A DNA stretch of 64,000 bases from an uncultured Alphaproteobacteria bacterium (GCA_964406405.1 CAYORN010000004.1:1-64000); one strand, 5' to 3'. Positions 12,371 to 43,093 are shown, counted from the first letter of the stretch. Numbers and translations: made by a program. The notes: generated by a model not told the origin, from the sequence alone.

Positions 12371-12395
12371 GCACTTCATCGTCAGAAACAGTGCT

Positions 12396-13771: not shown

Positions 13772-13813
13772 CGTTGTTACCTTTCTAAGGTTGTTTGGGT
13801 TTGCTGTTTTGTG

Positions 13814-13837: not shown

Positions 13838-13963
13838 AATTCACCACATATTGTACGTCGTCAGCCAAATGGCACACTTTCCTGGGTGACATAATTGACC
13901 AATAGAAGAGCACCTTAGGGACAGAGCCCGCTGTCTCGAATACTCATAATCCAGCGTCGTGGC

Positions 13964-14170
13964 ACCATCACCGCGTCCGCTATCATCTTCGCTTGATGGT
14001 GATGAAGGCAGCAGCCGAGGACAGGTTGAGCAGTGGTTACGCACCGCTTCCGGCGACGCCGTTATCTTCGCTATGATGGTGATGAAGGAACGCAGACGGA
14101 GACGGACTGACCAGTGCTGACGCTCCGATTCCGGCTATCGCCGTCATCTTCGCCATGATCGTGATGAAGG
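13964..14170 (-). repeat. mini-array of three copies of the ~32-nt motif (cores 13987..14008, 14066..14088, 14147..14170) spaced 79-81 bp, separated by unrelated 48-49-nt spacers
   Basis: cgccgttatcttcgctatgatggtgatgaagg / cgccgtcatcttcgccatgatcgtgatgaagg / ...tatcatcttcgcttgatggtgatgaagg; same orientation as the solitary copies; 210-400 nt upstream of CDS 12911..13771. Confidence 0.7.
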
Positions 14171-14499
14171 TGGTGCCCGGAAATCATATTACCAACCAGA
14201 GTACTCTGTTTCCGCTTGCTGAATCGACGGGCAATAGATAGGCGGCAGCGACAGGCCACTCTCCGAAGTTGTTTCGTATCAAGATAGTAAAACGTCGATC
14301 CGGAATCAACGGTTGCTCCGGCCGAATTTTGACGCAAGGCGGCGACAAAACGCGAGCGAAAAACTCGCGTCCGAGTGCCAGTGCACGAAATGCACGCGTA
14401 ACATAAACAAACCATTAGAGACTGCCGTATACTGTGCTGAAGCACCAGTGTGCTGTTCTCGTCCTGTTCGCTAATGACACTCCGCATCTCCGTCGCCTT

Positions 14500-14543
14500 C
14501 GACCAAACAAAAACCCTTGTTAAACAATAGTTTAACAAGGGTT
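14500..14543 (-). terminator. Rho-independent terminator (minus strand): perfect 14-bp stem AACCCTTGTTAAAC/GTTTAACAAGGGTT, 4-nt loop, then TTTGTTTGG
   Basis: perfect inverted repeat at 14512..14543; T-rich tract on minus strand (A-rich 14500..14511 on plus). Confidence 0.6.
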
Positions 14544-14547
14544 AAAA

Positions 14548-14574
14548 GGTGGAGACGGCGGGAATCGGACCCGC
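14548..14574 (-). other. second tRNA 3'-end-like fragment (minus strand GCGGGTCCGATTCCCGCCGTCTCCACC) lacking a 5' half
   Basis: T-arm-like stem GCGGG/CCCGC around TCCGATT, then acceptor-like CGTCTCC-A-CC; resembles the 3' region of tRNA-Ser(GGA) (..CCCCGTCTCTCCGCCA). Confidence 0.35.
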
Positions 14575-14647
14575 GGCACTCTTCTCTCCAAAGAGCATTA
14601 AATCAAACAATCACAGCACTGTAGCACATCGCGGAGAACACACTCAA

Positions 14648-15880
14648 CTAGTGGACTGACTCATCTACAGTGATGGGTAGAGGCTGCGCAGTTTGATGCG
14701 GGCGTCTTTGGTCGTAAACTGCCAGTTGATTTTCGCAATGCGACCGTTGCGTGCCGTTTCCCAAGCGGTGACTTCGCGACGCAACCGCTCGCTGCTGGCG
14801 AGACGGCGCTTGAGACACTGTTTCGTCAGGATGCCCAACTCGATCTCCGCGATGTTCAGCCAACTGCCATGCTTGGGCGTGTAGTGGATTTCCAGGCGAT
14901 CCGTCAGTCGTTTCGCTTCCGCCGGCGGGAAGGTCGCATAGAAGGACGCGGGGGGGTGCGTGTTCAGATTGTCCATGATCAGGACGATCCGTTCGGCATC
15001 GCGATACATCGTGTTCATCAGCTCTCGCATCGTCAGCGCCCAGCCCTGCTTCGTGCGCTGTTCAGTCACCTGCACATAACGCCTTCCCGTCAGCGGATCG
15101 CTGAACAGGAAGAGATTGGCCACCCCTTTGCGCACGTACTCGGCATCGTAGCGCGCCGCCTGTCCCGGCACCATCGGGAGCGGATGACGGATCTCGCCTA
15201 ACAGTTGCTTGCTGGTCTCATCCATACAGATCAGCGGACGCTGGGGATCATACGGCCGCTGGTAAACATCCAAAACGTCTTCCATGTGGAAGACATAGTC
15301 CGGATCCGCCTTGGTGGGGATCACCCACATCTCTTGAAGCCACGGCTTCAACGCATTTTTTTTAGCGTGCGCCGCACCGTTTCGCGCGCGACGTGGGGGC
15401 AGTATTCGAGGACGACCATCTGCTGAGCCAGCAGCCGCACCGACCACTGCGCGTGGCCTTCCGGCGGCTCGCTGCAGGCCAAAGCAATCAGATGCGCCTC
15501 GGCATTGCCATCCAACACGCGTTCATACTGACGTGTGGTCGGCCGGCGTTCCAGAGCCGCCTCCCAGCCGTCTTCGACGAAGCGTTGGCGCACCCGCTCA
15601 ATCGTGGAGATCGCCACGCCCAGCGCGTCGTGGATCTCGGGATCGCTGCGCGAGAGGCCATCAGGACTGGTATCCGCCTGCAACAGAATGCGGGCATGGG
15701 CCTGCTTGCGAGCGGATGACTTCCCTTTGCGCGTCAGCTCAAGTAACTGTTTGCGCTCCGCTTGCGAAAGCACCACACGGTACTTCTTGCGCATGACTTC
15801 CTCCGGTTATGCTGTCAGCAATCTCCCGGAGTATAACATGGCTCAAAAAACAACTCGAATCAAGTAGGTCGCTCCACTAG
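14648..15880 (-). mobile_element. IS630-family insertion sequence (~1.2 kb) with imperfect terminal inverted repeats CTAGTGGAC / CTAGTGGAG
   Basis: two overlapping transposase ORFs bracketed by inverted CTAGTGGA at 14648..14656 and 15873..15880; exact ends and TA duplication not resolved. Confidence 0.6.
14665..15794 (-). CDS. IS630-family DDE transposase made by programmed -1 frameshift (orfA 15348..15794 HTH; orfB 14665..15447 DDE) at an A8 slippery run (15355..15363)
   Basis: orfA: HTH (AISTIERVRQRFVEDGW). orfB: DDE core ...LIMDNLNTHPP...HYTPKHGSWLNIAEIELGI. 100-nt overlap contains CTAAAAAAAATGC, and the -1 product joins ..TLKK to NALKPWLQEMW. Confidence 0.8.
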
Positions 15881-15925
15881 GCGCAGGCAAAAGCATTTTA
15901 TGCGTTTGGCGTACTAAATCGCTAT

Positions 15926-16537
15926 TCAAGCCGTCGTCGGGTACGTGGCGCTTGCGCGTTGAAACAGCAATGCAGATGAGACAAACAGCGCGACGAAGAA
16001 CGCATTTAAGATGAAGACACCCACTACACCAGGGGGTTCTTCCACGGTGATAACCGGCTTCCAGATAATCAGCGCAATCACGGGGACCAACGCCTGAGCG
16101 AGCGCCGTCGCGAACAACGCGCGCGCCATTCTACGCGGCTTCAAGCGCGCGATGGCGGCACCGATGAATCCGACGACGAGCACACCGAGATACAGCACGT
16201 TGGCGGGGTGGTCCTCGGATCCAATGATCCCGACGGCAAGATTTAACCAGATGAGGATCAATCCTGCCGCCACTGCAATGCCGACGGCGACCCGGTACGC
16301 GATACTGTCCGACATTCTTGTTATCAACACATACGCGAGACCAGTGCCGAACAGGAGGACGCCCATGACAATGAAATCACCCAGGCTCCAGGCCACTTCA
16401 TCGGTGAACTGCATCGCCAACAAGGGTATCAGCAATATGAACGCTGTCGCCAGCGCAATGCGGATAATGTTTTTGTTTTGCACAATGATAAATGTCATGT
16501 TCGCTCTAATAATTCCCGCGGATGTTTCGACGAACAT
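15926..16537 (-). CDS. hypothetical polytopic membrane protein
   Basis: 203-aa ORF with 5-6 hydrophobic helices; no recognisable motif. Confidence 0.45.
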   Translation of the reverse strand: MFVETSAGIIRANMTFIIVQNKNIIRIALATAFILLIPLLAMQFTDEVAWSLGDFIVMGVLLFGTGLAYVLITRMSDSIAYRVAVGIAVAAGLILIWLNLAVGIIGSEDHPANVLYLGVLVVGFIGAAIARLKPRRMARALFATALAQALVPVIALIIWKPVITVEEPPGVVGVFILNAFFVALFVSSALLFQRASATYPTTA

Positions 16538-16628
16538 CCAGAGAGCGCAACCGAATAATCCTCTTTCTTCCTTCTGCCGCGCCTTCGGCGCGACCGTCCT
16601 GCCTCCTTTCGGAAGTGGAAGTTACATT

Positions 16629-16721
16629 TGGCGGAGAGACGGGGATTCGAACCCCGGATACCGGTTGTGCCAGTATGCACGCCTTCCAAGCGTGTGCCTT
16701 CAACCACTCGGCCATCTCTCC
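16629..16721 (-). tRNA. tRNA-Ser(GGA), long variable arm, CCA encoded; integration target of the upstream island
   Basis: GGAGAGATGGCCGAGTGGTTGAAGGCACACGCTTGGAAGGCGTG...CGGGGTTCGAATCCCCGTCTCTCCGCCA; anticodon loop TTGGAAG; 7-bp acceptor pairs. Confidence 0.9.
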
Positions 16722-16900
16722 CAAAGAGAAGTAAGAAAATCCGAAATCCGAAATCCGAGTCAGAAAGAAGTCAAAATCAAGCGCGACAGCCTTCTATCAC
16801 GTAATTTCCGTGCGTTCCACAAAGGTGCCTTGCTTGTCGGTCCTGTACTTTCAAATTCTTCTGATTTGGATTTCGGATTTTCTTCCTTGCTTACTTTTTC

Positions 16901-16991
16901 TGGCGGTGAGGGAGGGATTCGAACCCCCGGTACCCACGAGGAGTACAACGGCTTTCGAGGCCGCCGCATTCGACCACTCTGCCACCTCACC
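16901..16991 (-). tRNA. tRNA-Ser(CGA), long variable arm, CCA encoded
   Basis: GGTGAGGTGGCAGAGTGGTCGAATGCGGCGGCCTCGAAAGCCG...GGGGGTTCGAATCCCTCCCTCACCGCCA; anticodon loop CTCGAAA. Confidence 0.85.
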
Positions 16992-17137
16992 GGGGCAAAC
17001 TTTCTACACGAACCCGGGAACTGCAAGACGGAAAAGCGCCGCCGAAGCAGGAACGGGTAGGCCCTCAGGATTTCCAATATAATGCCTCCAAGCCGGGAGC
17101 GCAAGTCCGCCGCCGCGAGGAATCAACTCACGGGCGT

Positions 17138-22242: not shown

Positions 22243-22426
22243 AAGTACCACAATTACAACAGCATAAATAAATGCTGTTGCTTTCGCGACAGCATCCAAT
22301 TATATGAAAATTGAGGACTAAAGTCAAGCCGAAGCGGTTGAATTTATTGAGTTCATTGTTTTTACTTGCTTTTCCCCTTTGGTTGCTGTAGTATTGGGAT
22401 ATTACCGAAAGCTAAAGGTGAGGAAC

Positions 22427-23893
22427 ATGAAATCCCTTCTGCTACTCGGATTGCTCCTGTCATTGGCCTGCCCGCTCGCCTCACAGGACACGCTTTGGAG
22501 CCGAGTTTACGGTGGAGTGGAGAACGATTTCCCGTTCCCGGTGGCGTGTGCCTCGGATAGCGGCTTTCTGGTCGCCGGAACGACATATTCATACGGCATC
22601 GGTACTCCTGACGAAGCGAACTTCTGGCTTTTTCGGGTGGATGTCAATGGCGACAGTTCGTGGAGTCGGGCCTTTGGCGGCCATAACGGCGAACATTGCA
22701 GCAGTTTCGCACCCGTGTCCGGTGGGGGCTGGGTCTTGGGCGGCAACGTAGAATCGGATTCCTCTGGCGTTGACATGATGCTGCTACGCGTCAACGCAGA
22801 AGGCGACAGCCTTTGGACCGCTGTCCATGCATGGTCGGGCGATCAGTTCTGCTGGAGCGTTCGACAAACGATGGACGGCGGGTATGTCATGACGGGAAAA
22901 ACTGACCGGGCGGGTACCCAGTGGGCTGACATGTGCATGATCAAAGCGGACAGCTTGGGCAACATGGTCTGGACGCGAGTGTATGGTTTGGTTGAAGGTG
23001 ACGAATGGGGAATAGATGTTCGTCAGATGTCTGATGGAGGATATGCTGTGCTCGCCGGCTACAACGACACCTCGCAGCAGGACCCGTTGTCTGCGCGTTA
23101 TTGGCTTGTCAGAACAAATGAAGCAGGGGACAGCATCTGGAGCCATCACTATGGTGGAACAACGTATGACCAGCCTCAATCACTAGACCTTACTGAGGAT
23201 GGCGGCTTCGTTTTAGCCGGAACGCGGAGTGCGTTGGATGCAGCGGGAGATTTCTGGGTTGTGCGCACGGATGCCAACGGAGATACCCTCTGGACTGGTG
23301 CATACGGAGGGACGAACCGCGACGGATGCAGCATTGTTCGCCGAACACCCGATAACGGCTTTCTGCTCGCAGGTTACACATATTCCTTCGGGGCGGTCGG
23401 CGACGACTTTCTGATTGTCAAAATTGACTCCGTAGGAGCTTTGGAGTGGAGTCGCCACTATGGTCGAAGTCAATGGGATGAATGCTACGGTGCCTGTGTA
23501 ACTTCCTCCGGAGATTTTGCTCTGGCAGGCTGGACATACACGGCAGGGACGGGCTATGACCTGTGGCTGATGAAGATAGACCCTACCCTCCCCCAATCGT
23601 CGGCTCGCCCTCCCGAAGCGGTCGTGTCAAATGAGACTGTTCTGTATCCGAGCTATCCCAATCCCTTTAACTCCTCGTCCACTCTCTCCTACGATCTTCC
23701 CGAAGCGGCACACGTCTCGCTGACACTCTTTGATCTCGAAGGCCGACAGGTGCGAAGCTTGGCTGACAGCTTCCAACCTGCTGGCCGTCACACGATTCCG
23801 CTCGATGCCACGGGCCTAGCCTCAGGACTCTACTTTTGCCGCCTGTCCGCTGGAACCTATTCCACGAGTCAAAAGGTGATGGTAGTTAAGTAA
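22427..23893 (+). CDS. secreted beta-propeller-repeat protein with T9SS C-terminal sorting domain
   Basis: ~8 repeats of W.rvYGg..........DGG..l.G.t; C-terminus YPNPFNSSSTLSYDLPEAAHVSLTLFDLEGRQV...GLYFCRLSAGTYSTSQKVMVVK; paralog of 33186..34622. Confidence 0.75.
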   Translation: MKSLLLLGLLLSLACPLASQDTLWSRVYGGVENDFPFPVACASDSGFLVAGTTYSYGIGTPDEANFWLFRVDVNGDSSWSRAFGGHNGEHCSSFAPVSGGGWVLGGNVESDSSGVDMMLLRVNAEGDSLWTAVHAWSGDQFCWSVRQTMDGGYVMTGKTDRAGTQWADMCMIKADSLGNMVWTRVYGLVEGDEWGIDVRQMSDGGYAVLAGYNDTSQQDPLSARYWLVRTNEAGDSIWSHHYGGTTYDQPQSLDLTEDGGFVLAGTRSALDAAGDFWVVRTDANGDTLWTGAYGGTNRDGCSIVRRTPDNGFLLAGYTYSFGAVGDDFLIVKIDSVGALEWSRHYGRSQWDECYGACVTSSGDFALAGWTYTAGTGYDLWLMKIDPTLPQSSARPPEAVVSNETVLYPSYPNPFNSSSTLSYDLPEAAHVSLTLFDLEGRQVRSLADSFQPAGRHTIPLDATGLASGLYFCRLSAGTYSTSQKVMVVK

Positions 23894-24042: not shown

Positions 24043-24306
24043 ATGAGCACGATGCAATTTCAGGATGTGGGAGAGGCGGTCGAGGTAATTGCCCATTTCC
24101 GGGCCGGAAAGCTGGCTCCGGTCCGCTTCCGCTGGAAGGGGCGGGTGCTGCCGGTGCGGCAGATTACCGGAGATTGGCAGAGCGAGGTCGGGGCGGCCCG
24201 CTTACATCACTACGCGGTGATGAGCGACGGTCCCGACGTCTTCGAACTGTCGTACAATGAAAGCTCGTACGTGTGGAAACTGGAAAAAGTCGCGTTAAGC
24301 GGATAG
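24043..24306 (+). CDS. small hypothetical protein (87 aa) translationally coupled to dinB
   Basis: stop at 24304..24306 followed 1 nt later by the dinB ATG; no recognisable family. Confidence 0.5.
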   Translation: MSTMQFQDVGEAVEVIAHFRAGKLAPVRFRWKGRVLPVRQITGDWQSEVGAARLHHYAVMSDGPDVFELSYNESSYVWKLEKVALSG

Positions 24307-25579: not shown

Positions 25580-25614
25580 AGAAAACCAGAACACAATGCG
25601 TGTTCTGGTTTTTC
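25580..25614. terminator. bidirectional Rho-independent terminator between convergent dinB and tag (A-run, CCAGAACAC-aatgc-GTGTTCTGG, T-run)
   Basis: 9-bp perfect stem flanked by AAAAA and TTTTT. Confidence 0.7.
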
Positions 25615-25735: not shown

Positions 25736-26317
25736 TTATTTTTTCGCTGCTTTCAGCTCGCGATAGCGAAAACAATCGGTCGTATGGTCATTCACCATCC
25801 CCGCGGCCTGCATAAAGGCGTAGCAGATGGTGGAGCCGACGAACTTGAAGCCGCGACGGATCAGCTCTTTGCTCATCGCATCAGAGAGTTCCGTTTTCGG
25901 GGGAATGTCTCTGATCGTCCGGCAGCGGTTGTGCACGGTCTTGCCGTTCGTGAACTGCCAGATGAATTTGTCGAAGGTGCCGAATTCATTTTGCACAGCA
26001 AGGAAGCATTGCGCGTTCGTAATCGCCGCCTGAATCTTCTGCCGGTTGCGGACGATGCCTTCGTTCTGCAGCAGGCGCTCGTAATCTTTCGGCGTGAACT
26101 TCGCCACTTTTTTCGGGTCGAAATTCTTGAAGGCCTTGCGGAAATTCTCGCGCTTGTGGAGAATCGTGCGCCACGACAGCCCGGCTTGAAAGGCGTCGAG
26201 GATCATATACTCGAAGAGCAGCCGGTCATCATGCACCGGCTCGCCCCATTCCTGATCGTGATACTCGATCATCTGCGCGTCGTCGCTCGGCCACGCGCAA
26301 CGCTTTGCTTTCTTCAT
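25736..26317 (-). CDS. tag: DNA-3-methyladenine glycosylase I
   Basis: ..CAWPSDDAQMIEYHDQEWGEPVHDDRLLFEYMILDAFQAGLSWRTIL..; four-Cys zinc site of the Tag family. Confidence 0.85.
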   Translation of the reverse strand: MKKAKRCAWPSDDAQMIEYHDQEWGEPVHDDRLLFEYMILDAFQAGLSWRTILHKRENFRKAFKNFDPKKVAKFTPKDYERLLQNEGIVRNRQKIQAAITNAQCFLAVQNEFGTFDKFIWQFTNGKTVHNRCRTIRDIPPKTELSDAMSKELIRRGFKFVGSTICYAFMQAAGMVNDHTTDCFRYRELKAAKK

Positions 26318-27330
26318 GTAGTCGTTGGAATTTCCTGTTCGTTCGGATGGACATACCCGCCCGTTTGTCTCACCTTATCCAGCCGCTCCTCACACAGGCG
26401 ATCAGTCTCCTTCAGGTCCTCGGAATTGATCGTCCATCCCGCACCGCCCACGGTTTCTTCGATCTGCGAGGGGCGGCGCGCGCCGACGATGGCGCTGGTC
26501 ACTTCCGGACGGCGCAAGACCCACGCAATCGCCAACTGCGCCACGGTCTTTTCATATTTCGCGGCGATGGCGCGCAACTGCTCGACGAACTCGAGGTTTA
26601 TCGGAAGATTGGTGTCGGAGTATTCCTTCGCCGAGTTGCGCCAATCCGTAGCAGCAATTCGGCTCTTGTCAAACTTGCCGGTGAGCAGCCCCGCCTGCAT
26701 CGGGCTATAGGGGAGGAAGCCGATGTGATGCTCGCGGCAATACGCGAACGGTTCGCCTTCCGGATAGTGCCGCATGATGCTGTAGGCGGATTGCAGCGAG
26801 CTGATCGGGCGAACCTTTTGCGCGCGGTGCATGTTGCTCATGTCATAATGAAAGTTCGACACACCGCCGAAACGCACCTTGCCGTCGTAGATCAGCCGCC
26901 CGATCTCGTCCCAGCCTTCTTCGAGATGCTCGCTGTCGTTGGGCCAGTGAATCTGGTAGAGATCAATCACATCCGTCCGCAGGCGCTTGAGACTGGCCTC
27001 GCATTCGCGGCGCACACTCGCGCGAGTCAGATTGTGTGTGACCGTGCCGCTCTCATCCCACACCTGCGAACACTTTGTGGCAATGATGACATCATTCCGG
27101 CGTCCGCGAATCGCCTGTCCGACCACTTCCTCGCTGTGGCCGAAACCGTAGATCGCGGCCGTATCAATCCAGTTCACGCCCAATTCGAGCGCGCGATGAA
27201 TCGCCGCAATCGAATCTTTGTCGTCCTGCGGCCCCCAACTGAAGTTGCCGCCTTCGCCGCCAATCGCCCACGTACCCAAACCGATTTCGGTGAGGTGCAG
27301 ATCGCTGTTGCCAAGTTTGCGTGTGTTCAT
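26314..27330 (-). CDS. aldo/keto reductase family oxidoreductase
   Basis: MNTRKLGNSDLHLTEIGLGTWAIGG...LELGVNWIDTAAIYGFGHSEEVVGQAI; 338 aa. Confidence 0.85.
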   Translation of the reverse strand: MNTRKLGNSDLHLTEIGLGTWAIGGEGGNFSWGPQDDKDSIAAIHRALELGVNWIDTAAIYGFGHSEEVVGQAIRGRRNDVIIATKCSQVWDESGTVTHNLTRASVRRECEASLKRLRTDVIDLYQIHWPNDSEHLEEGWDEIGRLIYDGKVRFGGVSNFHYDMSNMHRAQKVRPISSLQSAYSIMRHYPEGEPFAYCREHHIGFLPYSPMQAGLLTGKFDKSRIAATDWRNSAKEYSDTNLPINLEFVEQLRAIAAKYEKTVAQLAIAWVLRRPEVTSAIVGARRPSQIEETVGGAGWTINSEDLKETDRLCEERLDKVRQTGGYVHPNEQEIPTTT

Positions 27331-29405
27331 GATTCATTCACGATTTGTGCCGCTTCCTTCGGTGATACACTCTCGCGTTCTATCCTATCACGTCCTACGG
27401 TGCTGTCCAATATTTCGATCGGCAAATACTTCGCATGCAAGCGTCGCAGATACTCGAGACCTGCTTCTTTATCTGGTGTATAGTCCCCGAGTTCCTTTCG
27501 GAAAAACTCCAACCTGGACCTGCAGTTCAATATTAATTCGCTCCATGTTCTGGTCCAAATTTTTAGCTTCAGTTCACCATGTTCAAATAGAACACCCTCG
27601 GGTCTGTTCGGTTGTCGGCACTCCTCCTTCACCACGTCGTCCATGTCAGACGAAAGAACCCAGAATATCCATTGAGTCTGAAGATGACGAAACCTTTCAT
27701 CCTTGGCGATAGCCATAGCATATTGCTTCATTTGCGTCGCCGCTTTGGAATCTATCTTTTGAGCGGGCTTCTTCAATTCAACAACAAGATGCACCAATTG
27801 TGTGACGTCAGGCTGCGGGATCTTCCGCGACAGCATCAAATCGACGATGCCCTTCTTGCCATCTGGCCTTACTACATCACTATTGTCCTCAAGCGGTTCT
27901 CCAAGCAGTTCGTAGTGTTTGACCAACACTTCATTTAGCGAACGGTCTGGAACGGAAAGGTGAAATTCCTCCCCAAATATCCAAGTCTGTTCTTCAAGAA
28001 TCTTCTGGAGATGAGCGCGTTCACGGACGAACTTTTTGACATCGGGATCAAACACAAGTGTTTCAAGGCCACTCAAGAATTCAAGTCGATCAGCTACGAG
28101 CTTCGATGCATTAATGATAGCAGCCAGCGAAGTCTTCTCTATCAAGTCAGCCAATTCGTCAAGCTTTTCAGGCGATAGTTCCAAGACTTCATTTACGATT
28201 CTTCGCATCGCTTCTGGACTCTCCGTGAGAACCTCTTTCAGAAGTCGAAACGAAAATTGTTTAGATTTCTTGTCGCTTTCTTCAAAACCGGGCAGATATG
28301 TGTTGACGTTCAGGGCAACTACGTCAAACACCTGTCGCTCCGCCTCCTCGACAATGCTCATCGCCGGTCCCACGTACGGATAGATATTGTTCTGCTTCCA
28401 TTCTTCCACAACTGCAGCGGCGTTTTGTGAGGCCTTGGCTCGGAAGTGCTCGCGGAGTTTATCCTTTGCTTGGTTAATGAGTTGGGCAGTGTCTGGATGA
28501 ATGTCCTCCAACATTAGCAAATCGTTGTCATACATTTGTCTCACAAAGTCTGACTTAACGTAGGCTGCAAAACTAAAACCGGGGGCCTGAATCCCGGGGC
28601 TTGTCTGCATTAACGACAGCCCGGCCTCATCGCACAGATGTAAGAAACGTTGCTTGTCGGTTTTCCATTCGATGATTTGGAGTTTAGCGGTGATGGAGCC
28701 GCCTTCCTCTATGTCTATTGGGACAAGATCATATTCAGTCGATGTTTCGACGGCAGCAATGGGATCAAGCTTGTGCTCATTGTAGTAGATATCAATATCG
28801 GGATAAGACATCAAGTAGATTGCGAAGCAATCCGAAAGTTGATCAACGGCACCGTCAGATAACAACTGCGTTGACGCCCGAGAACTGATATTGTCGATAG
28901 TAACTGTCGTGCCCATCCGCTTATCGTTAGTGGCTGGCAGTGCGGACAATTGGAACGTGCCAAGACTGCTTGCCGAACCCTTGACCGAAAACGCAAAATA
29001 AGCGTCGCAGTCGGAATAGTGTGTTTCCCATCGTGCACCCGAACCAAGAGAGAAAACAGAAAAACGACCTTGTCCGGCTTTCCCGTGAAGAGGGCGCTTT
29101 CGCCGTTTAGTGACACGTTCACTGTTCTTCCAAGAGCCACCCAAATTACTGAAAGCTGCATCGGCCTCGCCATAGGGTATGCCATGGCCGTTGTCGCTGA
29201 TGACTAGTGATTCGACAGCTCCCAACGCGCCAACGGAGAGCATGACACGAATGTCGGTTGCGTCCGCATCTAGGGCATTCCAGATAAGTTCCTCAACCGC
29301 AGAAAGGGGACGTTTAGTAGATCCGAGATGCCGAAGAAAATCAGGCTTGACTTCTACGTGAATGGTCCGACTGATCGGTAGTCCGCCACTTGCTTGAGTT
29401 GCCAT
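27327..29405 (-). CDS. GHKL-superfamily (HATPase_c/MORC-like) ATPase fused to a C-terminal region with a PD-(D/E)xK-like nuclease motif; low-GC horizontally acquired gene, candidate defence protein
   Basis: Bergerat-fold motifs ELIWNALDADA (motif I) and ISDNGHGIP (motif II); C-terminal ..GIVDLMLS...LVHLVVELKKP (D...ExK); GC ~45-50% against ~62% in flanking genes. Confidence 0.6.
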   Translation of the reverse strand: MATQASGGLPISRTIHVEVKPDFLRHLGSTKRPLSAVEELIWNALDADATDIRVMLSVGALGAVESLVISDNGHGIPYGEADAAFSNLGGSWKNSERVTKRRKRPLHGKAGQGRFSVFSLGSGARWETHYSDCDAYFAFSVKGSASSLGTFQLSALPATNDKRMGTTVTIDNISSRASTQLLSDGAVDQLSDCFAIYLMSYPDIDIYYNEHKLDPIAAVETSTEYDLVPIDIEEGGSITAKLQIIEWKTDKQRFLHLCDEAGLSLMQTSPGIQAPGFSFAAYVKSDFVRQMYDNDLLMLEDIHPDTAQLINQAKDKLREHFRAKASQNAAAVVEEWKQNNIYPYVGPAMSIVEEAERQVFDVVALNVNTYLPGFEESDKKSKQFSFRLLKEVLTESPEAMRRIVNEVLELSPEKLDELADLIEKTSLAAIINASKLVADRLEFLSGLETLVFDPDVKKFVRERAHLQKILEEQTWIFGEEFHLSVPDRSLNEVLVKHYELLGEPLEDNSDVVRPDGKKGIVDLMLSRKIPQPDVTQLVHLVVELKKPAQKIDSKAATQMKQYAMAIAKDERFRHLQTQWIFWVLSSDMDDVVKEECRQPNRPEGVLFEHGELKLKIWTRTWSELILNCRSRLEFFRKELGDYTPDKEAGLEYLRRLHAKYLPIEILDSTVGRDRIERESVSPKEAAQIVNES

Positions 29406-29435
29406 GTTTACCTCTATCTGCTTGCGTTGCCTTGC

Positions 29436-33185: not shown

Positions 33186-34622
33186 CTACTTCAGGTAGAC
33201 GAGCTTTTTAACTTTCATTGCTCCCCCCGCCTCGATGCCTACGAGATAGATTCCGCTACTCACACCCGGGCTCCACGTTACGGAATGTGCCCCGGCACTC
33301 TGCCGGCTATCTTGCAGAACGGCGACTTTTTCTCCTAACAGGTTAAAGATGCTCACGCGCACCTCTGCCGATGATGACAGCTCATAGCGAATGGTAACGG
33401 TGCTATTGAAGGGATTCGGGTAGGTGGAAAGAGTGTGGTCTTGCGGTGACAGAACAACATTCCTTTCGGAAACAGCGGTCTCAACATCTTGTTCAATTCG
33501 AATGACGTAGAAATCATAGCTTCCTGCGTAGCTGGATCCACTGTGGCCAGCGACAAAGTAGTCGAGATTTGGCGCGAGTTGAACGGCCATTGCTCTCACA
33601 TCCGAGTCAGTTCCGAGGATTCTAGTCCATAGTGTATCCCCGATCACATTGGTCCTGACCACATACGACTTTGTTCCGCCAACTTGAAAGGACTGCGTCC
33701 AGCCCACCACAATGAAACCGCTGTCCGGCGTTTGCAGAATGCTCGATGGCCAATCGTTGTATTCGCCTCCGTATGTTCTGTCCCACAAAGTGTTACCGTC
33801 ATCATCGGTTCGAATCAGCCAGAAATCCGCGCTGTTATAATTGGCATACGTTGAGATCTGTCCAGACAGCATGTAACCACCCCCAGCGACGGGAGTGACA
33901 CCGTTCAGATCGTCGTCACCTGCGCCTCCAAAGGTACGGCTCCAGAGGGTGTCGCCGTTTTCATCCGCGCGCAGGATGATTCCATCGCGGTTAGCCCATT
34001 CCACATTAGTCGAACCGACAAACAAATACCCTCCGCCGGTCACAGGAATGGCGTCATAGACATTGTCGTTGTAAGGCCAGCCGTAGCGCCGACACCACTC
34101 TTCATGGCTGAGGGAGTCGGTCTTGACAACATAGATGTCGCCCAATCCTGCACCCAATCCCCAAGAAGTGCCGGAGACAACGTACCCTCCATCGGGAGTG
34201 GCGGCGATGTCACTAGCGATCTCCCAAGAGCCGCCGTCATACTCTTCTCGCCACTCCATTAATCCTGTAGAGTCCAGCTTCATGGTAAACATGTCTCCGT
34301 CAGTTCCGCCCCGATACACCCACCCCGCGATCATCCATCCTCCATTGTGTGCGGCAACGACATCCTCGGCCACATCACGGTCTTCGGTGCCATATATCCC
34401 CGTCCACAATGTGTCGCCAGCAACGTCAATTCGCAGAGCATAAATGTCATAATCAGGATAATTTCCGGTGGTGCCGACAACAATCAATCCACCGTCGTTT
34501 ATGGACAAAGCCGTGTGCGCTTCTTGATCCAGATTCCTGCTGTATATTCTCGTCCAGACCGTGTCTGGCGGCTGCGCAAAGGCACAAGTCATCAAAAAAA
34601 GAGTAGTGAGTAAGCGAATCAT
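33186..34622 (-). CDS. secreted beta-propeller-repeat protein with T9SS C-terminal domain (paralog of 22427..23893)
   Basis: same W..iYG....D......DGG repeat; C-terminus ...YPNPFNSTVTIRYELSSSAEVRVSIFNLLGEKV...GIYLVGIEAGGAMKVKKLVYLK. Confidence 0.75.
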   Translation of the reverse strand: MIRLLTTLFLMTCAFAQPPDTVWTRIYSRNLDQEAHTALSINDGGLIVVGTTGNYPDYDIYALRIDVAGDTLWTGIYGTEDRDVAEDVVAAHNGGWMIAGWVYRGGTDGDMFTMKLDSTGLMEWREEYDGGSWEIASDIAATPDGGYVVSGTSWGLGAGLGDIYVVKTDSLSHEEWCRRYGWPYNDNVYDAIPVTGGGYLFVGSTNVEWANRDGIILRADENGDTLWSRTFGGAGDDDLNGVTPVAGGGYMLSGQISTYANYNSADFWLIRTDDDGNTLWDRTYGGEYNDWPSSILQTPDSGFIVVGWTQSFQVGGTKSYVVRTNVIGDTLWTRILGTDSDVRAMAVQLAPNLDYFVAGHSGSSYAGSYDFYVIRIEQDVETAVSERNVVLSPQDHTLSTYPNPFNSTVTIRYELSSSAEVRVSIFNLLGEKVAVLQDSRQSAGAHSVTWSPGVSSGIYLVGIEAGGAMKVKKLVYLK

Positions 34623-34629
34623 GGTTACC

Positions 34630-36039
34630 TCACTTCAGGATGACGAGTTTCTGCGTTACGGTGCCCGTGACGGTCTCCAGCCGCGCAAAGTGAATGCCCG
34701 AGCTGAGCTGCTCGGCGGAGTAGCGAATCGTGTGCGGCCCAGCGGCCAGCCTTCCATTAACCAGCTCGCCCACTTTGCGTCCAAGGATATCATAAAGAAC
34801 GAGCGATACAATCCCCGACTGCGGCAATGTAAAGGAAATCTGCGTAGCAGCGTTGAAGGGATTGGGATAGGCGGAAAGAGTGAATGCTGAGGGATAGAAG
34901 GCGAGATCATCCGCCGATTGGTCGGTGACGGTGAAGCGCACCAAGTGATAGCGCGGCGGACTTGCGTAATCCAGCGCGAGGGCCAGATATCCTCCGGATG
35001 GGTGGGGAATAATGTCCAACATGCGGCTATAGACTTCTTCCGCACCCGCTTCAGGCCACCATGTTGTCATCGCCTCCGGCACACGAATGACGGTGGCACC
35101 CAATTCGGTATGGACGGCGCCGAGGATTCCGCCGTTAGCGTGAGGGCAGAGAGCATCAAAGAAGCAGGTGTCCGCATCGCTGAAGAACGGTAGAAATACG
35201 CGCTCGCTGTCTTCGTAACTCCTGAGAAATAATTGGCGCGGACTATGATAGGTTATGCCAATCGTCCACAGGTCACCGTCGGTCGTTTCAACTGCGTCGT
35301 AAACCCGCACCGAATCCCAATGCGCAATTGGCACGAGGTGATCTTGGTGTCCGGTCTCCGGGTTCAGCATTCCGGTGAAATAGGCGCCGTCGCCCGGCAA
35401 GCCCGACATCCCCACGTACACCAGACCATGCTCAGACGTCATTCGTAATGAGTAGAAGCCATTCCAATTATCCATCATGTAGGGCAAGACTTCGTTCTCC
35501 CACGCGATCGTGCCCGTCGTGAGATCAATTCCGGTCATCATCCCGGCGGGCGCAAAGGAGCCGTACGGATTTAAATCCGCAAAGTACGCCCGATTCTCAT
35601 GCATTGTCCCGAGACTGGCCAGTCGCTCGGGCATCAGCCACTGTTGAGTCCACGATGAACTGCCGTCGAGATCGAAGTAGCTGACCCGAAATGACCCGCC
35701 CACTGAATCCCACGGGATCAGTGCACTCCATTCAACGACGTATGCCGAGTCGGTGGTCTTGACATCTAGAACTGCCGCAATTTCTTCCTCCGCCGAATCA
35801 TCCCGCAGAATCTCGTTCCAGATGAACTGGCCAGTTGACGTGTCGAGCACGGCGAAATATCCTGCCATTGGCCAGTATCCTTCATGCGATCCCCACATCG
35901 CAACGCGACCCTCTCCGCCCTCGCCAAGACGCTGAAAATGACGATTGGATACGGAGGAATCCAATTCGACGTCCTGCAGAATCTGAATCTGCGAGAAGCC
36001 CGACGTCGCAAGAATGAGGACACAAAGCAAGAAGATCAT
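34630..36039 (-). CDS. secreted protein with T9SS C-terminal sorting domain
   Basis: C-terminus ..AYPNPFNAATQISFTLPQSGIVSLVLYDILGRKV...GIHFARLETVTGTVTQKLVILK; signal peptide. Confidence 0.7.
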   Translation of the reverse strand: MIFLLCVLILATSGFSQIQILQDVELDSSVSNRHFQRLGEGGEGRVAMWGSHEGYWPMAGYFAVLDTSTGQFIWNEILRDDSAEEEIAAVLDVKTTDSAYVVEWSALIPWDSVGGSFRVSYFDLDGSSSWTQQWLMPERLASLGTMHENRAYFADLNPYGSFAPAGMMTGIDLTTGTIAWENEVLPYMMDNWNGFYSLRMTSEHGLVYVGMSGLPGDGAYFTGMLNPETGHQDHLVPIAHWDSVRVYDAVETTDGDLWTIGITYHSPRQLFLRSYEDSERVFLPFFSDADTCFFDALCPHANGGILGAVHTELGATVIRVPEAMTTWWPEAGAEEVYSRMLDIIPHPSGGYLALALDYASPPRYHLVRFTVTDQSADDLAFYPSAFTLSAYPNPFNAATQISFTLPQSGIVSLVLYDILGRKVGELVNGRLAAGPHTIRYSAEQLSSGIHFARLETVTGTVTQKLVILK

Positions 36040-37465: not shown

Positions 37466-39052
37466 TTATTTCATCAACACCATGCGGTTCGTGAATGACT
37501 GGCCAGCAACGGTCACGCGATACAGGTAGATTCCTGACGGCATGCTGGCCGCGTTCCAATTCACCTTGTACGTTCCGGCAGCTTGGTAGCCGTTCACCAG
37601 CGCCGCCACTTCGCGGCCCACGATGTCAAACACTTTCAGTGTGACGTCGCCGCTCGTCGGCAGACCATAGGCGATGGTCGTCGTCGGATTGAACGGATTC
37701 GGATAGTTGTCCGCCGTCAGATAACTTGCCGGCAAACCAACATTGACCGGATCGGTCGTGGACAACCCTTCCGGTGAGAAGCCAGTCGTATCACCCGGAT
37801 CCCGCCACGGCAGGCCGTTGATTTCATAGACAACCACCACGCCGAGATCCATATTTTCGCAATCCATCAGTCCGCCGACGATGGTAATCTCATCGCCGTC
37901 GGCCGGACGGCTCGCGCCGCCCTCGCCATCGGGATCATACCACGGGGGACCGAAGCTCAACGCATAATCGGCCTCGGCGTCGGCGTTCGTGTCAATAAAG
38001 TAGCGGTGCATGTTACCATGGAAGCCTTCGCCGGTCTGCACAATTGCCGTGCCTTCGAGGTCAATCGAGACGATGCTGTCCGGGTCGCAGCCGTTGCCGT
38101 GCCAGCCGCCGTTGCCGCCGTGGCCGTTGCGCGGCTCGCGCCAGAACAGGCCGTTAATCTCATAGACTACGATCATCGGTGGATGGCCAAAGCTCAGGAG
38201 ACCACCCGACACCGTGATTTCGTCGCCGTTCTGCGGACGTTCTGCGCCCTGACCCTCGCCATCCGGATCGTACCCGGCCGGGCCGAACGCGAGACGATAA
38301 TCCGCTTCGCCGTCCGCATCCACATCAAGGAGGTAGCGTGCTTGATGATGCATGCTGTCCGCGGGAATGACAATCGCTACACCCGTGCGCTCAACCACAG
38401 TCAGCGAATCGCCATGATGCCCGCCATGCCCACCGTGCCCACCGTGGTTGCCACGGTTCTCGAGTACCAGCGTGACGTTGGTTGTTTGGTTCGCGGCGAC
38501 TTCAATTAATGCGCTGGCAAAACCTTCGCCAAACAGCATTGCCGTTACCGAATACGAACCGGCCGGAACCGTATCGAAACTGAAAGCGCCTTGCTCGTCG
38601 GCATTCAATGTCGCATGGAAGCCGGGATGATGCCAAATCAACTGATCCAGCATGACCGTCGCGTTTGCCGCTGGCTCACCATCTTCTGTCGTCACCGTAC
38701 CGGCCACTGAGCCAGCCTCTTCAACGGAGGGTCCAAGCACCAGCACCAACGGCACCGTCTCATTCGCAATGACAAAGACAAACCCCTGGCCATCGAAATA
38801 TCCTTCGAGGCTGGCACTGGCCATGTATCCGCCCCAAGGAATCTCGTTGAATTCAAAATGCCCTTCGGCATCGGACTCGGCAGTAAATGAATCGCCGCCG
38901 TGCATATAGGAGCGAATTGCAATCTGTGCCCCGGCCGCCCCGGTCTGGCCATCGTGATAGAAAACCGTACCCGAGATGCTGCCCGTCTGCGCGAACGCCG
39001 CCAGCGACAGGGCTAAAATACTGAGGAGGAGGGGAAGAAAACGCTTGCTCAT
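37466..39052 (-). CDS. secreted protein with CarboxypepD_reg-like domains and T9SS C-terminal sorting domain; His/Gly-rich linker
   Basis: GSISGTVFYHDGQ...AESDAEGHFEF; C-terminus ..NYPNPFNPTTTIAYGLPTSGDVTLKVFDIVGREV..GIYLYRVTVAGQSFTNRMVLMK. Confidence 0.7.
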   Translation of the reverse strand: MSKRFLPLLLSILALSLAAFAQTGSISGTVFYHDGQTGAAGAQIAIRSYMHGGDSFTAESDAEGHFEFNEIPWGGYMASASLEGYFDGQGFVFVIANETVPLVLVLGPSVEEAGSVAGTVTTEDGEPAANATVMLDQLIWHHPGFHATLNADEQGAFSFDTVPAGSYSVTAMLFGEGFASALIEVAANQTTNVTLVLENRGNHGGHGGHGGHHGDSLTVVERTGVAIVIPADSMHHQARYLLDVDADGEADYRLAFGPAGYDPDGEGQGAERPQNGDEITVSGGLLSFGHPPMIVVYEINGLFWREPRNGHGGNGGWHGNGCDPDSIVSIDLEGTAIVQTGEGFHGNMHRYFIDTNADAEADYALSFGPPWYDPDGEGGASRPADGDEITIVGGLMDCENMDLGVVVVYEINGLPWRDPGDTTGFSPEGLSTTDPVNVGLPASYLTADNYPNPFNPTTTIAYGLPTSGDVTLKVFDIVGREVAALVNGYQAAGTYKVNWNAASMPSGIYLYRVTVAGQSFTNRMVLMK

Positions 39053-41644: not shown

Positions 41645-43093
41645 CTATTTGCCAACGAGATTTTGAAAGTCAACGTCACCCAAGAACGCAGCAAACACGC
41701 GAGCGCCTTTGGCACGACCAGCTATGTCATGACTAATCTTGACTGCGCGCGCCAACCACGAGAGAGCAGCACTTTTGTTCCCAAGTCTGGCATAGACAGT
41801 TGCAAGATTGTACATTGCGTTGTAATAATCAGGCTTGATCTGTATAGCGCGAACATAAGTGGCTATTGCTTCCTCATACCGACCCAATGCGATCAAGCTC
41901 AGACCCTTATTGTTCATAGCTTCATACTTGTCAGGCTTGACGCAGAGTGCCGCATCGTAGGCCGTGATGGCTTCTTGGTGACGCCCTAATTGGTCAAGAC
42001 TATTGCCTTTGCCATACAGAGCTTCGTCTGAGTCAGGCGAGGTTCGTAGCGCTTCCTCATAGGCGTCAAGAGCTTCAACGAAGCGCCCAAGTCTCTCAAG
42101 GCAACTGGCCTTATTAATGAGACTGGCCACATCATCAGGTTTGATCTCTAGCGCTGCAGCGAGAGAGGGCATTGCTTCCTCATAACGTCCCAAGACCATC
42201 AGACTGTTGCTTCTGCAGATCAATATCTCGTAATCATGGGGCCTAATCCTGAGCATAAGATTGTAGACTGCAAGAGCTCGCTCATGCAAGTCCAATGCGA
42301 CCAGGCATTTTGCTTTGTTGTAGAGAACGTGAAAGTCTATTTTGATTCTTAGTGCGGCATCATATACATCAAGGGCCTCCTTATGACGCCCGAGCGCATC
42401 CAGGCTAACACCCTTGTTGCTAAGCGTCCAACTCCAATCCGGTTTGATCCTCAACGCAGCATCATACGCTAAGATCGCCTCCTCGTGAAGGTCAAGAGCA
42501 GACAGCATGCATCCCTTGTTGCTAAAGGCCTCCGCGAGGTCAGGCTGAGTCTTCAGGGCGGAGTCAAATGCAGCAATTGCGCTGATGTGTGAACCTAATT
42601 GACCGAACACGACTCCACGAAAGAACCATACTTCAGTCTTGATGCTGTCGGGCAGAATTCTCGTATTGATGGCAAGAAGTTTCGCGATTGCCGAATTCAA
42701 CTCGCCGGAAGAGATATATGCACGCGCGCTGTCGAGTGTGTTGCTTGATCTCGACAAAATGCGTGACTGTAACAACCTGTATTGGGGTGACTTCTCCTTT
42801 AGCTCATCTGGAGTTGACTCAAAGATCAGCTGATTTAGACATTCCTGAGTCACACAAAGGTCGCTGATGATGGAGTCTTGCCTAAATCTCTCGTTAGCTG
42901 CAAAAGTGCTGTCAGCTAGACGCTTTCTTTTGCCTCTGTAGTCAGATATCATGTCAAACGTTGAACCGAAAAGCGTTAACAATGCTACAAGGAGAACTGT
43001 GAATCCCTTCGCCCTTCGCTTTTCACGTAGCTCGGCAACTGCGACCCAAAAGGCAAGCGCAGAAGCTATCAACAGAATGACTTTTGCATCCAT
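41645..43093 (-). CDS. tetratricopeptide-repeat (TPR) protein with N-terminal membrane anchor
   Basis: at least 10 tandem 34-aa TPR units (..A...Y..AL...P......N.G..L). Confidence 0.8.
   Translation of the reverse strand: MDAKVILLIASALAFWVAVAELREKRRAKGFTVLLVALLTLFGSTFDMISDYRGKRKRLADSTFAANERFRQDSIISDLCVTQECLNQLIFESTPDELKEKSPQYRLLQSRILSRSSNTLDSARAYISSGELNSAIAKLLAINTRILPDSIKTEVWFFRGVVFGQLGSHISAIAAFDSALKTQPDLAEAFSNKGCMLSALDLHEEAILAYDAALRIKPDWSWTLSNKGVSLDALGRHKEALDVYDAALRIKIDFHVLYNKAKCLVALDLHERALAVYNLMLRIRPHDYEILICRSNSLMVLGRYEEAMPSLAAALEIKPDDVASLINKASCLERLGRFVEALDAYEEALRTSPDSDEALYGKGNSLDQLGRHQEAITAYDAALCVKPDKYEAMNNKGLSLIALGRYEEAIATYVRAIQIKPDYYNAMYNLATVYARLGNKSAALSWLARAVKISHDIAGRAKGARVFAAFLGDVDFQNLVGK

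Follow-up and report, generated by a model that had tools for sequence, protein, structure and literature searches.

What is a low-GC gene of 2.1 kb, fitted closely between housekeeping genes of an alphaproteobacterium, doing there, and could its product defend the cell against invading DNA? The gene lies in a stretch of 64,000 nucleotides from an uncultured Alphaproteobacteria bacterium (GCA_964406405.1 CAYORN010000004.1:1-64000), hereafter the window. An initial annotation proposed that it encodes a GHKL ATPase fused to a nuclease, acquired as a stand-alone defence protein. The ORF listing returned the same coordinates for the gene, and the features of its immediate surroundings are as follows.

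27327..29405, minus strand: ORF of the GHKL ATPase-nuclease, 692 aa, ATG start (ORF listing)
29406..29435, minus strand: 30-nt spacer between the S9 peptidase gene and the GHKL-nuclease gene, in which GAGG, resembling a Shine-Dalgarno motif, lies 5 nt upstream of the ATG
27327..27330, minus strand: ATGA overlap of the GHKL-nuclease stop codon and the aldo-keto reductase (AKR) start codon (TCAT on the plus strand)
26314..27330, minus strand: AKR ORF (ORF listing; Pfam Aldo_ket_red match)
25582..25612, minus strand: terminator-like hairpin after tag, 14 bp stem and T-run (consensus match only)

The NCBI gene call for this locus is 638 aa long and does not include the first ATPase motif, while a second gene caller also predicted the 692-aa product. 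The sequence upstream of the ATG of the 692-aa ORF reads ...GCAGATAGAGGTAAACATG, and the position of the GAGG motif favours this longer start over the NCBI call. With the end of the S9 peptidase ORF at 29436, the gap is of 30 nt, as had been described. The 4-nt overlap with the AKR gene was likewise present, but AKR and tag had been placed upstream, whereas on the minus strand they follow the gene. Since a promoter and terminator scan of the region gave counts not above shuffled expectation, we report only the hairpin after tag; downstream of the string S9 - GHKL-nuclease - AKR - tag, whose genes all run in one direction, no other hairpin is strong. The gene, which stands alone among housekeeping genes, is probably co-transcribed with them.

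The composition of the gene sets it apart from these neighbours. In sliding windows, GC was 0.46-0.52 across the ORF and rose to 0.57-0.60 on either side; the drop to 45-50% noted initially was therefore real, whereas the flanking value of about 62% was too high. The dip persisted when GC was recalculated per gene: the ORF has a GC of 0.484 and a GC3 of 0.504, while the means for the genes of the window are 0.570 ± 0.042 and 0.681 ± 0.089, and the direct neighbours have 0.588/0.729 (AKR) and 0.582/0.709 (S9). It ranks third lowest in GC and second lowest in GC3 among the 36 window ORFs of at least 150 aa, although the deviation is only about 2 sd (z = -2.06 for GC and -1.99 for GC3) and three other window genes are similarly low. 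Within the window, no defence gene was found nearby and no integrase, repeat or tRNA at the borders of the gene, the nearest tRNAs being located at 16.6-17.0 kb and 22.2 kb; nor was a cognate methyltransferase found near it. The window also encodes multiple Por_Secre_tail proteins, which suggest a host with a T9SS (FCB-group-like). The nearest homolog, with 65% identity, is located in a different locus. By its composition and the different locus of this homolog, the gene was probably acquired horizontally, but a 4-nt overlap and a 30-nt gap to housekeeping genes are unusual for a recent insertion, and domestication would fit them too.

To describe the product, we used an AF2 model of the 692-aa protein (pLDDT 81.9), which is a prediction and not a solved structure. 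The order of parts is a GHKL ATPase, an S5-like middle domain, a helical linker and a PD-(D/E)xK nuclease.

28806..29369, minus strand: GHKL (Bergerat-fold) ATPase domain, residues 13-200 (Pfam HATPase_c_3)
29268-29291, minus strand: motif I, E39-L-I-W-N43-A-L-D46 (translation checked)
29181-29195, minus strand: motif II, D71-N-G-H-G75 (translation checked)
29061-29087, minus strand: motif III, H107-GKAGQGRF (translation checked)
28902-28913, minus strand: motif IV, G165-T-T-V (translation checked)
28506..28805, minus strand: middle (transducer, S5-like) β-rich domain, residues ~201-300 (AF2 secondary structure; Foldseek)
28125..28505, minus strand: helical linker or arm (residues ~301-427), built of a long helix, 304-338, plus a bundle of helices (AF2 model)
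27426..28124, minus strand: PD-(D/E)xK nuclease domain, residues 428-660
27969-27971, minus strand: catalytic candidate E479
27840-27842, minus strand: catalytic candidate D522
27771-27779, minus strand: catalytic candidates E543-L-K545
27720-27734, minus strand: catalytic candidates Q558-xxx-Y562

The ATPase domain matches Pfam HATPase_c_3 with E=3.6e-15 and 56.6 bits, above the cutoff of 25. Its Bergerat motif residues, E39/N43/D46, D71/G73/G75, G108/G111/G113 and G165-T166, are invariant or nearly so in 38 homologs, and the best Foldseek matches of the region are TRAP1, MORC, MutL and Hsp90. The alignments to MutL LN40, MORC3/4 and TRAP1 N+M fragments run over 330-440 columns, beyond the GHKL domain (E=3e-12 to 1e-10), and the model predicts a Bergerat fold followed by an S5-like transducer domain. 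In the linker, residues 403-427 are modelled with low confidence and probably form a flexible hinge. The D...E-L-K arrangement that had been likened to restriction endonucleases falls within a confidently modelled PD-(D/E)xK nuclease fold, in which E479, D522, E543-x-K545 and Q558xxxY562 are invariant in the family. ELIWNALD (E39-D46), DNGHG (D71-G75) and ELK (E543-K545) all lie where the initial annotation had put them, and as they are invariant across the 38 homologs, these are not chance matches.

None of the housekeeping families that share this ATPase accounts for the protein. The models for MutL, histidine kinases, Topo VI and Hsp90 match only its first ~60-160 residues, far below their cutoffs. 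The MutL models cover only residues ~31-86, with 13-36 bits against cutoffs of 180-937; Pfam detects no MutL_C domain, and the PDB matches to MutL are limited to the N-terminal ~60 residues. As for a sensor histidine kinase, there is no HisKA-type domain, the ATPase is located at the extreme N-terminus, and the models give E≥0.009 with cutoffs above 300 bits. For Topo VI-B and Hsp90, the match is confined to the Bergerat motifs at the N-terminus, with scores far under the curated cutoffs. The likeness to MutL, MORC, Hsp90 and Topo VI-B thus resides in the N-terminal ~300 residues, where the Bergerat fold and the transducer domain are common to all (Foldseek E=1e-10 to 1e-12), as are motifs I-IV. 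Unlike MutL, the protein has no C-terminal dimerization or endonuclease domain of that type, and unlike MORC, Hsp90 and Topo VI-B, it has no CW domain, coiled coil, Hsp90 C-terminal domain or Toprim partner. The MORC structures are fold neighbours only, with 13-16% identity.

The initial annotation could name no system that the protein resembles. Its architecture, however, matches two published descriptions, paraMORC3 (PMC2292703) and Shedu type 1D/I-D (bioRxiv 10.1101/2023.08.10.552793), so that it is less novel than it first appeared. As defined by Iyer, Abhiman and Aravind in 2008, paraMORC3 combines a GHKL domain whose motifs are intact with an S5 domain and, at the C-terminus, a conserved RecB-like nuclease of the restriction endonuclease fold that bears an E-D-ExK arrangement (PMC2292703). 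Its distribution is sporadic and laterally mobile, and the nuclease-bearing subset is stand-alone, with no conserved neighbourhood and sometimes beside restriction-modification (R-M) genes (PMC2292703). The present family agrees point by point with this definition, as compared with the published description. paraMORC3 was reported as prevalent in proteobacteria and Bacteroidetes (PMC2292703); the present family extends past these phyla, being also common in Acidobacteriota, Planctomycetota, Verrucomicrobiota, Myxococcota and on Streptomyces plasmids. The second description, given by Gu et al., is a class named "Type 1D, HATPase_c_3 + N24 + DUF4263" (bioRxiv 10.1101/2023.08.10.552793).

An experimentally studied relative of the Shedu kind is VcSduA (A1552VC_00276), a type I-D defence protein of Vibrio cholerae VSP-II(WASA) (Nat Microbiol 2025, PMC12137116). 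Its E27A and K557A mutations abolish defence, and both ATP hydrolysis and nuclease activity are needed; the structure predicted for it is dimeric, unlike the Shedu tetramer (PMC12137116). Like VcSduA, the window protein is the product of a single gene, is of similar size (692 aa, as compared to 673 aa) and has the same order of parts, namely a GHKL ATPase, a middle or clamp region, a helical region and a C-terminal PD-(D/E)xK nuclease with D...ExK...QxxxY. We compared the family with six full-length VcSduA-type genes from plasmids; VcSduA-type genes are often placed after type I R-M genes. The hhalign alignment of the two families had a probability of 95.6% (E=1.2e-8) over 549 collinear columns (query 42-649, template 23-670), with the helical linker collinear with the matching region of the VcSduA-type proteins. 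E39 was aligned with the VcSduA residue mutated in E27A, and ELK with EIK (K556/557). By this profile comparison, the GHKL-nuclease family is remotely homologous to the VcSduA family over its full length.

The distance between the two families is nevertheless large. Identity to VcSduA is ~18%, and BLASTP against a V. fluvialis VcSduA-type protein was not significant (E=2.2). Motif I is AELIWNxLDADA in the present family and PxFEAVxNSIxS in VcSduA, and the HATPase_c_3 match is strong in the former but weak in VcSduA-type proteins. The published table of 543 VcSduA hits contains no occurrence of ELIWN, ELVWN or LGGSWK, as compared to 123 of FEA[VI]VNS. Canonical Shedu is SduA, with DUF4263/PF14082, and includes the B. 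cereus (8TI8/8TI9) and E. coli (8PS4) proteins. In the characterized ones, the N-terminus carries an sPC4/Whirly or NRF regulator, whereas the GHKL-nuclease has its ATPase there. Since one single canonical sequence is an uninformative template (hhalign probability 1%), a seven-sequence profile was used, which gave 31%. Pfam DUF4263 (PF14082) matched none of the 38 family members even at E≤1, and none of the six VcSduA-type comparators at E≤0.1. The PADLOC SduA model (PDLC00401) matched residues 389-482 only of the window protein (E=0.0023) and 11 of the 38 members (best E=8.2e-6), while the PADLOC REase_II models matched 26 and 17 of the 38. The PADLOC run that had been suggested as a check thus yielded these weak SduA and REase_II matches and, beyond them, no direct membership in a PADLOC v2 system. 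Apart from such weak matches in PADLOC v2, the family is overlooked by all three of PADLOC v2, Pfam DUF4263 and the published VcSduA model.

The distribution of the family bears on its function. Full-length homologs have 45-65% identity and a constant architecture, and they form ~560-1700 clusters at 50% identity, found patchily in at least 472 species genomes from many phyla and in one archaeon. The family also occurs on plasmids, in prophages and in two Pasteurella phages, where the homolog is a moron in the tail module; the match to phrog_6203 spans the full length. Neighbour clustering in 88 loci revealed no conserved partner gene, as no neighbour cluster occurred in more than seven of them. 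The most frequent neighbours were HsdR (7/88), HsdS (6/88) and HsdM (5/88). The 136 flanking proteins gave 114 Pfam families, among which R-M, integrase, ArdC, TIR and Schlafen recurred, although roughly 80-85% of the flanking genes, as a raw share, are not recognizably defence-related. Homologs recur at type I R-M operon ends, with the start of one overlapping the hsdR stop. One homolog lies within a BREX operon, flanked by a BrxC-sized gene and TIR/PglX, another shares an island with an integrase, a transposase and a MORC operon, and a third lies on a Psychrobacter plasmid beside Drt2 and a Dcm/LlaMI pair.

Given that homologs have no conserved partner yet recur in mobile and defence contexts (R-M and BREX operons, plasmids, prophages), and that the family is remotely homologous to VcSduA over the full length, a mobile single-gene defence role is plausible, and the protein is a candidate defence factor on the strength of such comparisons. 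The best explanation, to which we assign a probability of about 70%, is a DNA endonuclease that is regulated by ATP and works alone, of the paraMORC3 or GHKL-Shedu (type 1D/I-D) kind, acting as a mobile single-protein anti-phage or anti-plasmid factor. By analogy with MutL, MORC, Topo VI-B and the VcSduA dimer model, ATP binding would cause the N-terminal GHKL domains to dimerize, which would close a clamp of the middle and helical domains around DNA. The closed clamp would license or position the paired C-terminal nuclease domains to cut the invading DNA, and ATP hydrolysis would then reset the enzyme.

The alternative that survives best, although we consider it unlikely, keeps the defence role but changes the mode of recognition. 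The protein would be a restriction endonuclease, either modification-dependent (type IV-like) or sequence-specific, in which the GHKL domain drives looping or translocation, as proposed for BbrUII/HgiDII, instead of a Shedu-like sensor of ends or structure. The best NCBIfam match is indeed the BbrUII/HgiDII family (E=4e-12, N-terminal 150 residues), and MspJI and AspBHI, both modification-dependent, head the Foldseek matches of the nuclease domain. The REase_II matches, the lack of a nearby cognate methyltransferase, as expected of a type IV enzyme, and the proximity of homologs to R-M systems, which type IV enzymes often adjoin, point the same way. The match to the full-length BbrUII/HgiDII equivalog (NF050001) is partial, with 45.4 bits against a cutoff of 550 and residues 37-178 only.

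Only tentatively, and with rather low expectation, can the HATPase_c_3-type family be viewed as a distinct ATP-gated clamp-nuclease that backs up type I R-M and BREX or serves them as an accessory effector, or that has here been domesticated with tag as a repair nuclease. The accessory role is suggested by several homologs whose start codons overlap hsdR or a brxC-like gene. If either were true, the recognition logic would be unlike that of both VcSduA and canonical Shedu.

Domestication as a DNA-repair or genome-maintenance factor is improbable. On this view, the MutL-like ATPase would bring its own nicking nuclease and be co-expressed with Tag, the 3-methyladenine glycosylase, its gene lying near that of DNA polymerase IV. 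Such a role would account for the translational coupling to AKR, the shared direction with tag, the position after tag of the only strong terminator-like hairpin, the adjacent dinB and the presence of NucS/EndoMS among the close structural neighbours of the nuclease domain, and Iyer et al. speculated that stand-alone, non-R-M paraMORC3 genes may have been recruited for repair (PMC2292703). On the other hand, the composition of the gene is atypical as compared to tag, AKR and dinB, its closest homolog (65%) is not beside repair genes, and no repair gene recurs beside homologs in the 88 loci. That the family is carried by plasmids and phages and occurs in R-M and BREX operons, and that the MutL C-terminal domain is absent, also argues against repair.

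A toxic effector, in which a triggered ATP-gated nuclease degrades host and phage DNA indiscriminately and kills the infected cell, seems still harder to sustain. Several homologs lie beside toxin-antitoxin genes (HigBA-like Gp49/HI1420, RelB, PIN and AbiEii-like AAA_21), and Gu et al. report a proposed abortive mode for some canonical Shedu-class proteins (PD-T4-8; bioRxiv 10.1101/2023.08.10.552793). VcSduA, the only tested relative, however, protects at all MOIs with no population collapse and is therefore direct, not abortive (PMC12137116), and the sequence itself does not tell one mode from the other. Of the original proposal of an acquired single-protein immunity or abortive-infection module, the defence part is supported by the missing partner, the R-M, BREX, plasmid and prophage contexts and the remote VcSduA homology, and the abortive part is improbable. 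Finally, an inactive remnant or mis-annotated gene is very improbable, as the 638-aa NCBI call without motif I and the lack of defence neighbours within the window are outweighed by an intact 692-aa frame with a GAGG ribosome-binding motif, its prediction by a second gene caller and the presence of every family-invariant catalytic residue.

The preferred reading, a stand-alone ATP-regulated endonuclease, makes the locus itself probably an ordinary one, a lone defence gene of a kind already described. To our knowledge, VcSduA is the one experimentally tested example of a GHKL-ATPase-regulated single-protein defence nuclease, and we know of no solved structure or biochemical mechanism for such proteins. 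The window protein would represent a second, deeply diverged and widespread sequence family with the same layout. Testing this family would show whether ATP-gated clamping and cleavage is general for the class and, since its genes are now labelled only "ATP-binding protein", would improve the annotation of defence systems.

The focal gene lies at 27327..29405 on the minus strand and encodes 692 amino acids from an ATG start, exactly as in the initial annotation. The drop in GC content noted there was recovered in a sliding window (0.46-0.52 across the ORF), whereas the flanks reach 0.57-0.60 on both sides and not the proposed 62%. Computed per gene, the ORF has a GC of 0.484 and a GC3 of 0.504. 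As compared to the 36 window ORFs of at least 150 aa (mean GC 0.570 ± 0.042, GC3 0.681 ± 0.089), these values correspond to z = -2.06 and -1.99 and rank third and second lowest, respectively; GC3 is 0.71-0.73 in both direct neighbours. The dip is not unique within the window, since the TPR-repeat protein gene at 41645-43093 is equally atypical (GC 0.488, GC3 0.513).

GC is also low in a second patch, at 11402-17060. Here, a PAP2 gene (11402-12121, GC 0.472) and an SPFH/Band-7 gene (12911-13771, GC 0.444) adjoin a DDE_3 transposase gene (14665-15447) and a pair of tRNA-Ser genes (16629-16721 and 16901-16991), an arrangement that could represent a small tRNA-associated genomic island. The window also encodes several secreted proteins with the T9SS C-terminal sorting domain Por_Secre_tail (7952-9376, 22379-23893, 33186-34622, 34630-36039 and 37466-39052), which suggest that the host is of Bacteroidota/FCB type, and a giant ORF (54118-64000, >3294 aa) with a Sortilin-Vps10 repeat and a DUF5077 match that runs past the window end.

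By Pfam, the neighbours of the focal gene are Peptidase_S9, Aldo_ket_red, Adenine_glyco and a Y-family polymerase. The 30-nt gap to the S9 peptidase gene and the ATGA overlap between the focal-gene stop and the aldo-keto reductase (AKR) start are both present in the sequence. The AKR gene and the 3-methyladenine glycosylase gene tag had been placed upstream; the coding-strand order is S9 peptidase, focal gene, AKR and tag, and they are therefore downstream. The sole strong terminator-like hairpin is located 3' of tag. Near these genes, a DUF6504 ORF (24043-24306, 87 aa) stops 1 nt short of the dinB start (24308), in an imuA/imuB-like position as in mutasome cassettes.

The identical NCBI protein (P0001) is only 638 aa long and begins at M55, without GHKL motif I (E39/N43/D46). 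The 54 N-terminal residues (window 29243-29405) are kept among homologs, so that the shorter call truncates motif I. A GAGG motif precedes the 692-aa start by 5 nt, and a second gene caller also selected the longer start (Logan gene call P0121, 692 aa). The start in the deposited record is probably wrong.

The AlphaFold2 model of the full protein, which is of good confidence (pLDDT 81.9), is composed of five parts:

residues 13-200: GHKL ATPase (Pfam HATPase_c_3, E=3.6e-15, over the gathering score)
residues ~201-300: beta-rich middle domain (AlphaFold2 model)
residues ~301-427: helical arm, with a low-confidence, probably flexible hinge at 403-427 (AlphaFold2 model)
residues 428-660: C-terminal alpha/beta domain (AlphaFold2 model)
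after the domain ending at residue 660: disordered tail (AlphaFold2 model)

The GHKL and middle domains superpose on TRAP1/Hsp90, MORC3/4 and MutL N-terminal and transducer fragments (Foldseek E=1e-10 to 3e-12, 330-440 columns). Among the 38 aligned full-length homologs, N43 and D46 of motif I are invariant and E39 is nearly so; also invariant are D71, G73 and G75 of motif II, G108, G111 and G113 of motif III, and G165 of motif IV. The GHKL site appears to be catalytically competent. In the C-terminal domain, E479, D522, E543, K545, Q558 and Y562 are invariant in the same alignment, and E479-D522-E543xK545-QxxxY reads as the classical E-D-ExK-QxxxY pattern of RecB/Cas4-type PD-(D/E)xK nucleases. 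Folded separately, and with very high confidence (pLDDT 87.4, pTM 0.82), this domain has only PD-(D/E)xK Foldseek neighbours, namely MspJI, AspBHI, EndoMS, SduA, McrC and HamA; judged by its residues, the predicted nuclease is catalytically complete. In agreement with the initial annotation, the protein thus combines a GHKL ATPase with a restriction-endonuclease-like C-terminus.

At E<=1e-5, a word-indexed search recovered at least 1363 homologs; nearly all are 650-700 aa long, they are 45-50% identical to the query, and their names do not go beyond 'hypothetical' or 'ATP-binding protein'. When the nuclease-domain profile was run exhaustively with HMMER, 1697 cluster representatives were retrieved at E<=1e-3, 1224 at E<=1e-10 and 560 at E<=1e-30. 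In full-length matches the nuclease always occupies ~415-655 of a ~660-aa protein, and the GHKL-nuclease fusion is therefore constant. The family extends to at least 472 species-representative genomes, drawn from Acidobacteriota, Planctomycetota, Verrucomicrobiota, Myxococcota, Cyanobacteriota, Pseudomonadota, Bacillota, Nitrospirota and Armatimonadota, and to 49 plasmids. One archaeal relative, with 44% identity, lies on a 3.1-kb contig of a Nitrososphaerales MAG (JBEKAG010000139.1, locus L057); either the gene was transferred between domains or the contig was misbinned. In two temperate Pasteurella phages, Pmp14 (locus L010:7986-9944) and Pmp3, a moron in the tail module, between the tail-assembly genes and the tape-measure gene, encodes a full-length homolog with 37% identity, which may be a prophage-encoded superinfection defence. 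The focal protein is also matched across its full length by phrog_6203, a PHROG without assigned function.

The initial annotation could name no matching system, but this architecture has already been described three times, and the names paraMORC3 and GHKL-Shedu (type 1D/I-D) exist. ParaMORC3 was defined by a GHKL and an S5 domain followed by a C-terminal RecB-like RE-fold nuclease with E-D-ExK, and is laterally mobile, often stand-alone and without a conserved neighbourhood (Iyer, Abhiman and Aravind 2008, PMC2292703); each testable feature of this definition is present in the window family. 'Type 1D' Shedu, as listed by Gu et al. (bioRxiv 10.1101/2023.08.10.552793), includes homologs with HATPase_c_3, an 'N24' middle domain and a DUF4263 nuclease. 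VcSduA of V. cholerae WASA, a 673-aa GHKL and DUF4263 protein with a predicted GHKL-type dimer, shields E. coli from T1-like phages at all MOIs, and E27A (ATPase) and K557A (nuclease) each abolish protection (PMC12137116).

For comparison we used six full-length VcSduA-type proteins from plasmids (alignment A2). BLASTP between VcSduA-type and focal proteins was not significant (E=2.2), and the window-family signature motifs are absent from all 543 VcSduA hits in the published list. Profile-profile alignment joined the two families with 95.6% probability (E=1.2e-8) over 549 collinear columns, from motif I, where E39 falls on the position of VcSduA E27, to the C-terminal helix; within the nuclease, VVELKRP aligns with VVEIKRP and QxxxY with QxxxY. 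On these alignments, the two are remote homologs that share one architecture but form separate sequence families, and the focal gene belongs to a deeply diverged sister family of VcSduA. At the HMM level the focal family lies outside formal DUF4263 membership: the Pfam model matched 0/38 window-family members and 0/6 VcSduA-type proteins, while the PADLOC SduA model matched 11 of the 38 (best E=8e-6). Against a seven-sequence canonical Shedu profile, hhalign gave 31% probability (E=5e-4) for the window family, with the catalytic motifs in register, and 62% (E=7e-5) for the VcSduA type, suggesting that the focal and VcSduA nucleases resemble Shedu to a similar degree.

On the Vibrio fluvialis IncC plasmid pIDH5335-1 (locus L011:407-5019), canonical Shedu and VcSduA-type GHKL-Shedu genes follow one another with a 4-nt overlap, immediately behind type I R-M hsdM and hsdS genes; two distinct Shedu classes are stacked in one operon-like array.

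Clustering of three ORFs on either side of 88 homolog loci revealed no conserved partner gene. The commonest neighbour clusters were type I R-M subunits, mostly immediately upstream (HsdR 7/88, HsdS 6/88, HsdM 5/88). At one locus, which also holds transposases and toxin-antitoxin genes, hsdR runs into the homolog, its stop overlapping the homolog's start. Pfam sorts the 136 proteins directly next to the homologs into 114 families; only type I R-M domains, phage integrases, ArdC, TIR, Schlafen/AlbA, patatin and AAA_21 recur among them. Homolog P0061 sits with a 4-nt start overlap inside a BREX locus (L006:6007-21986) ordered BrxB, a 1143-aa BrxC-sized gene, P0061, a TIR-domain gene, a PglX-like methyltransferase and, later, PglZ. 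The island of homolog P0058 (L005) contains an integrase, a transposase, a group II intron RT and a GmrSD-like gene; the adjoining operon (L005:3065-7957) of HATPase_c_3 (550 aa), PC4, SFII helicase and PLD is the MORC-type R-M arrangement of Iyer et al. A Psychrobacter plasmid homolog adjoins Drt2 and a Dcm/LlaMI R-M pair. Two further loci are otherwise housekeeping, as in the window, and the nearest homolog (65% identity) has a context unlike the window's. This association with R-M and defence genes is descriptive, and the recurrent positions after type I R-M genes and within BREX could reflect shared mobility alone or functional cooperation.

The initial reading of a stand-alone, horizontally acquired defence protein is supported by the single gene, the mobile family and the homology to VcSduA, and such a role is probable. 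By analogy with MutL, MORC and Topo VI-B, and with the genetics and dimer model of VcSduA, ATP binding would dimerise the GHKL domains, and the middle and helical domains would then close around DNA. With the clamp closed, the C-terminal nucleases would be positioned or unlocked for cleavage of foreign DNA, and ATP hydrolysis would reset the enzyme. The protein shows no visible modified-base reader domain.

As a variant of this defence reading, a type IV-like or sequence-specific restriction enzyme is unlikely but the best placed of the alternatives: the N-terminus resembles BbrUII/HgiDII, the nuclease fold neighbours include MspJI and AspBHI, and a methyltransferase is absent near the focal gene. 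A domesticated repair factor would fit the operon-like arrangement with tag and the proximity of dinB, but we consider it improbable given the atypical composition, the mobile distribution throughout the family and the lack of a recurrent repair neighbour at the 88 loci. An abortive infection effector seems slightly less probable still, as the VcSduA precedent does not favour it. A pseudogene is highly improbable because the reading frame and all motifs are intact.

Current defence-annotation tools miss the window family of this putative VcSduA-like defence protein, and the family would be a reasonable starting point for biochemical work on ATP-gated Shedu-like nucleases, which would be the first of its kind.
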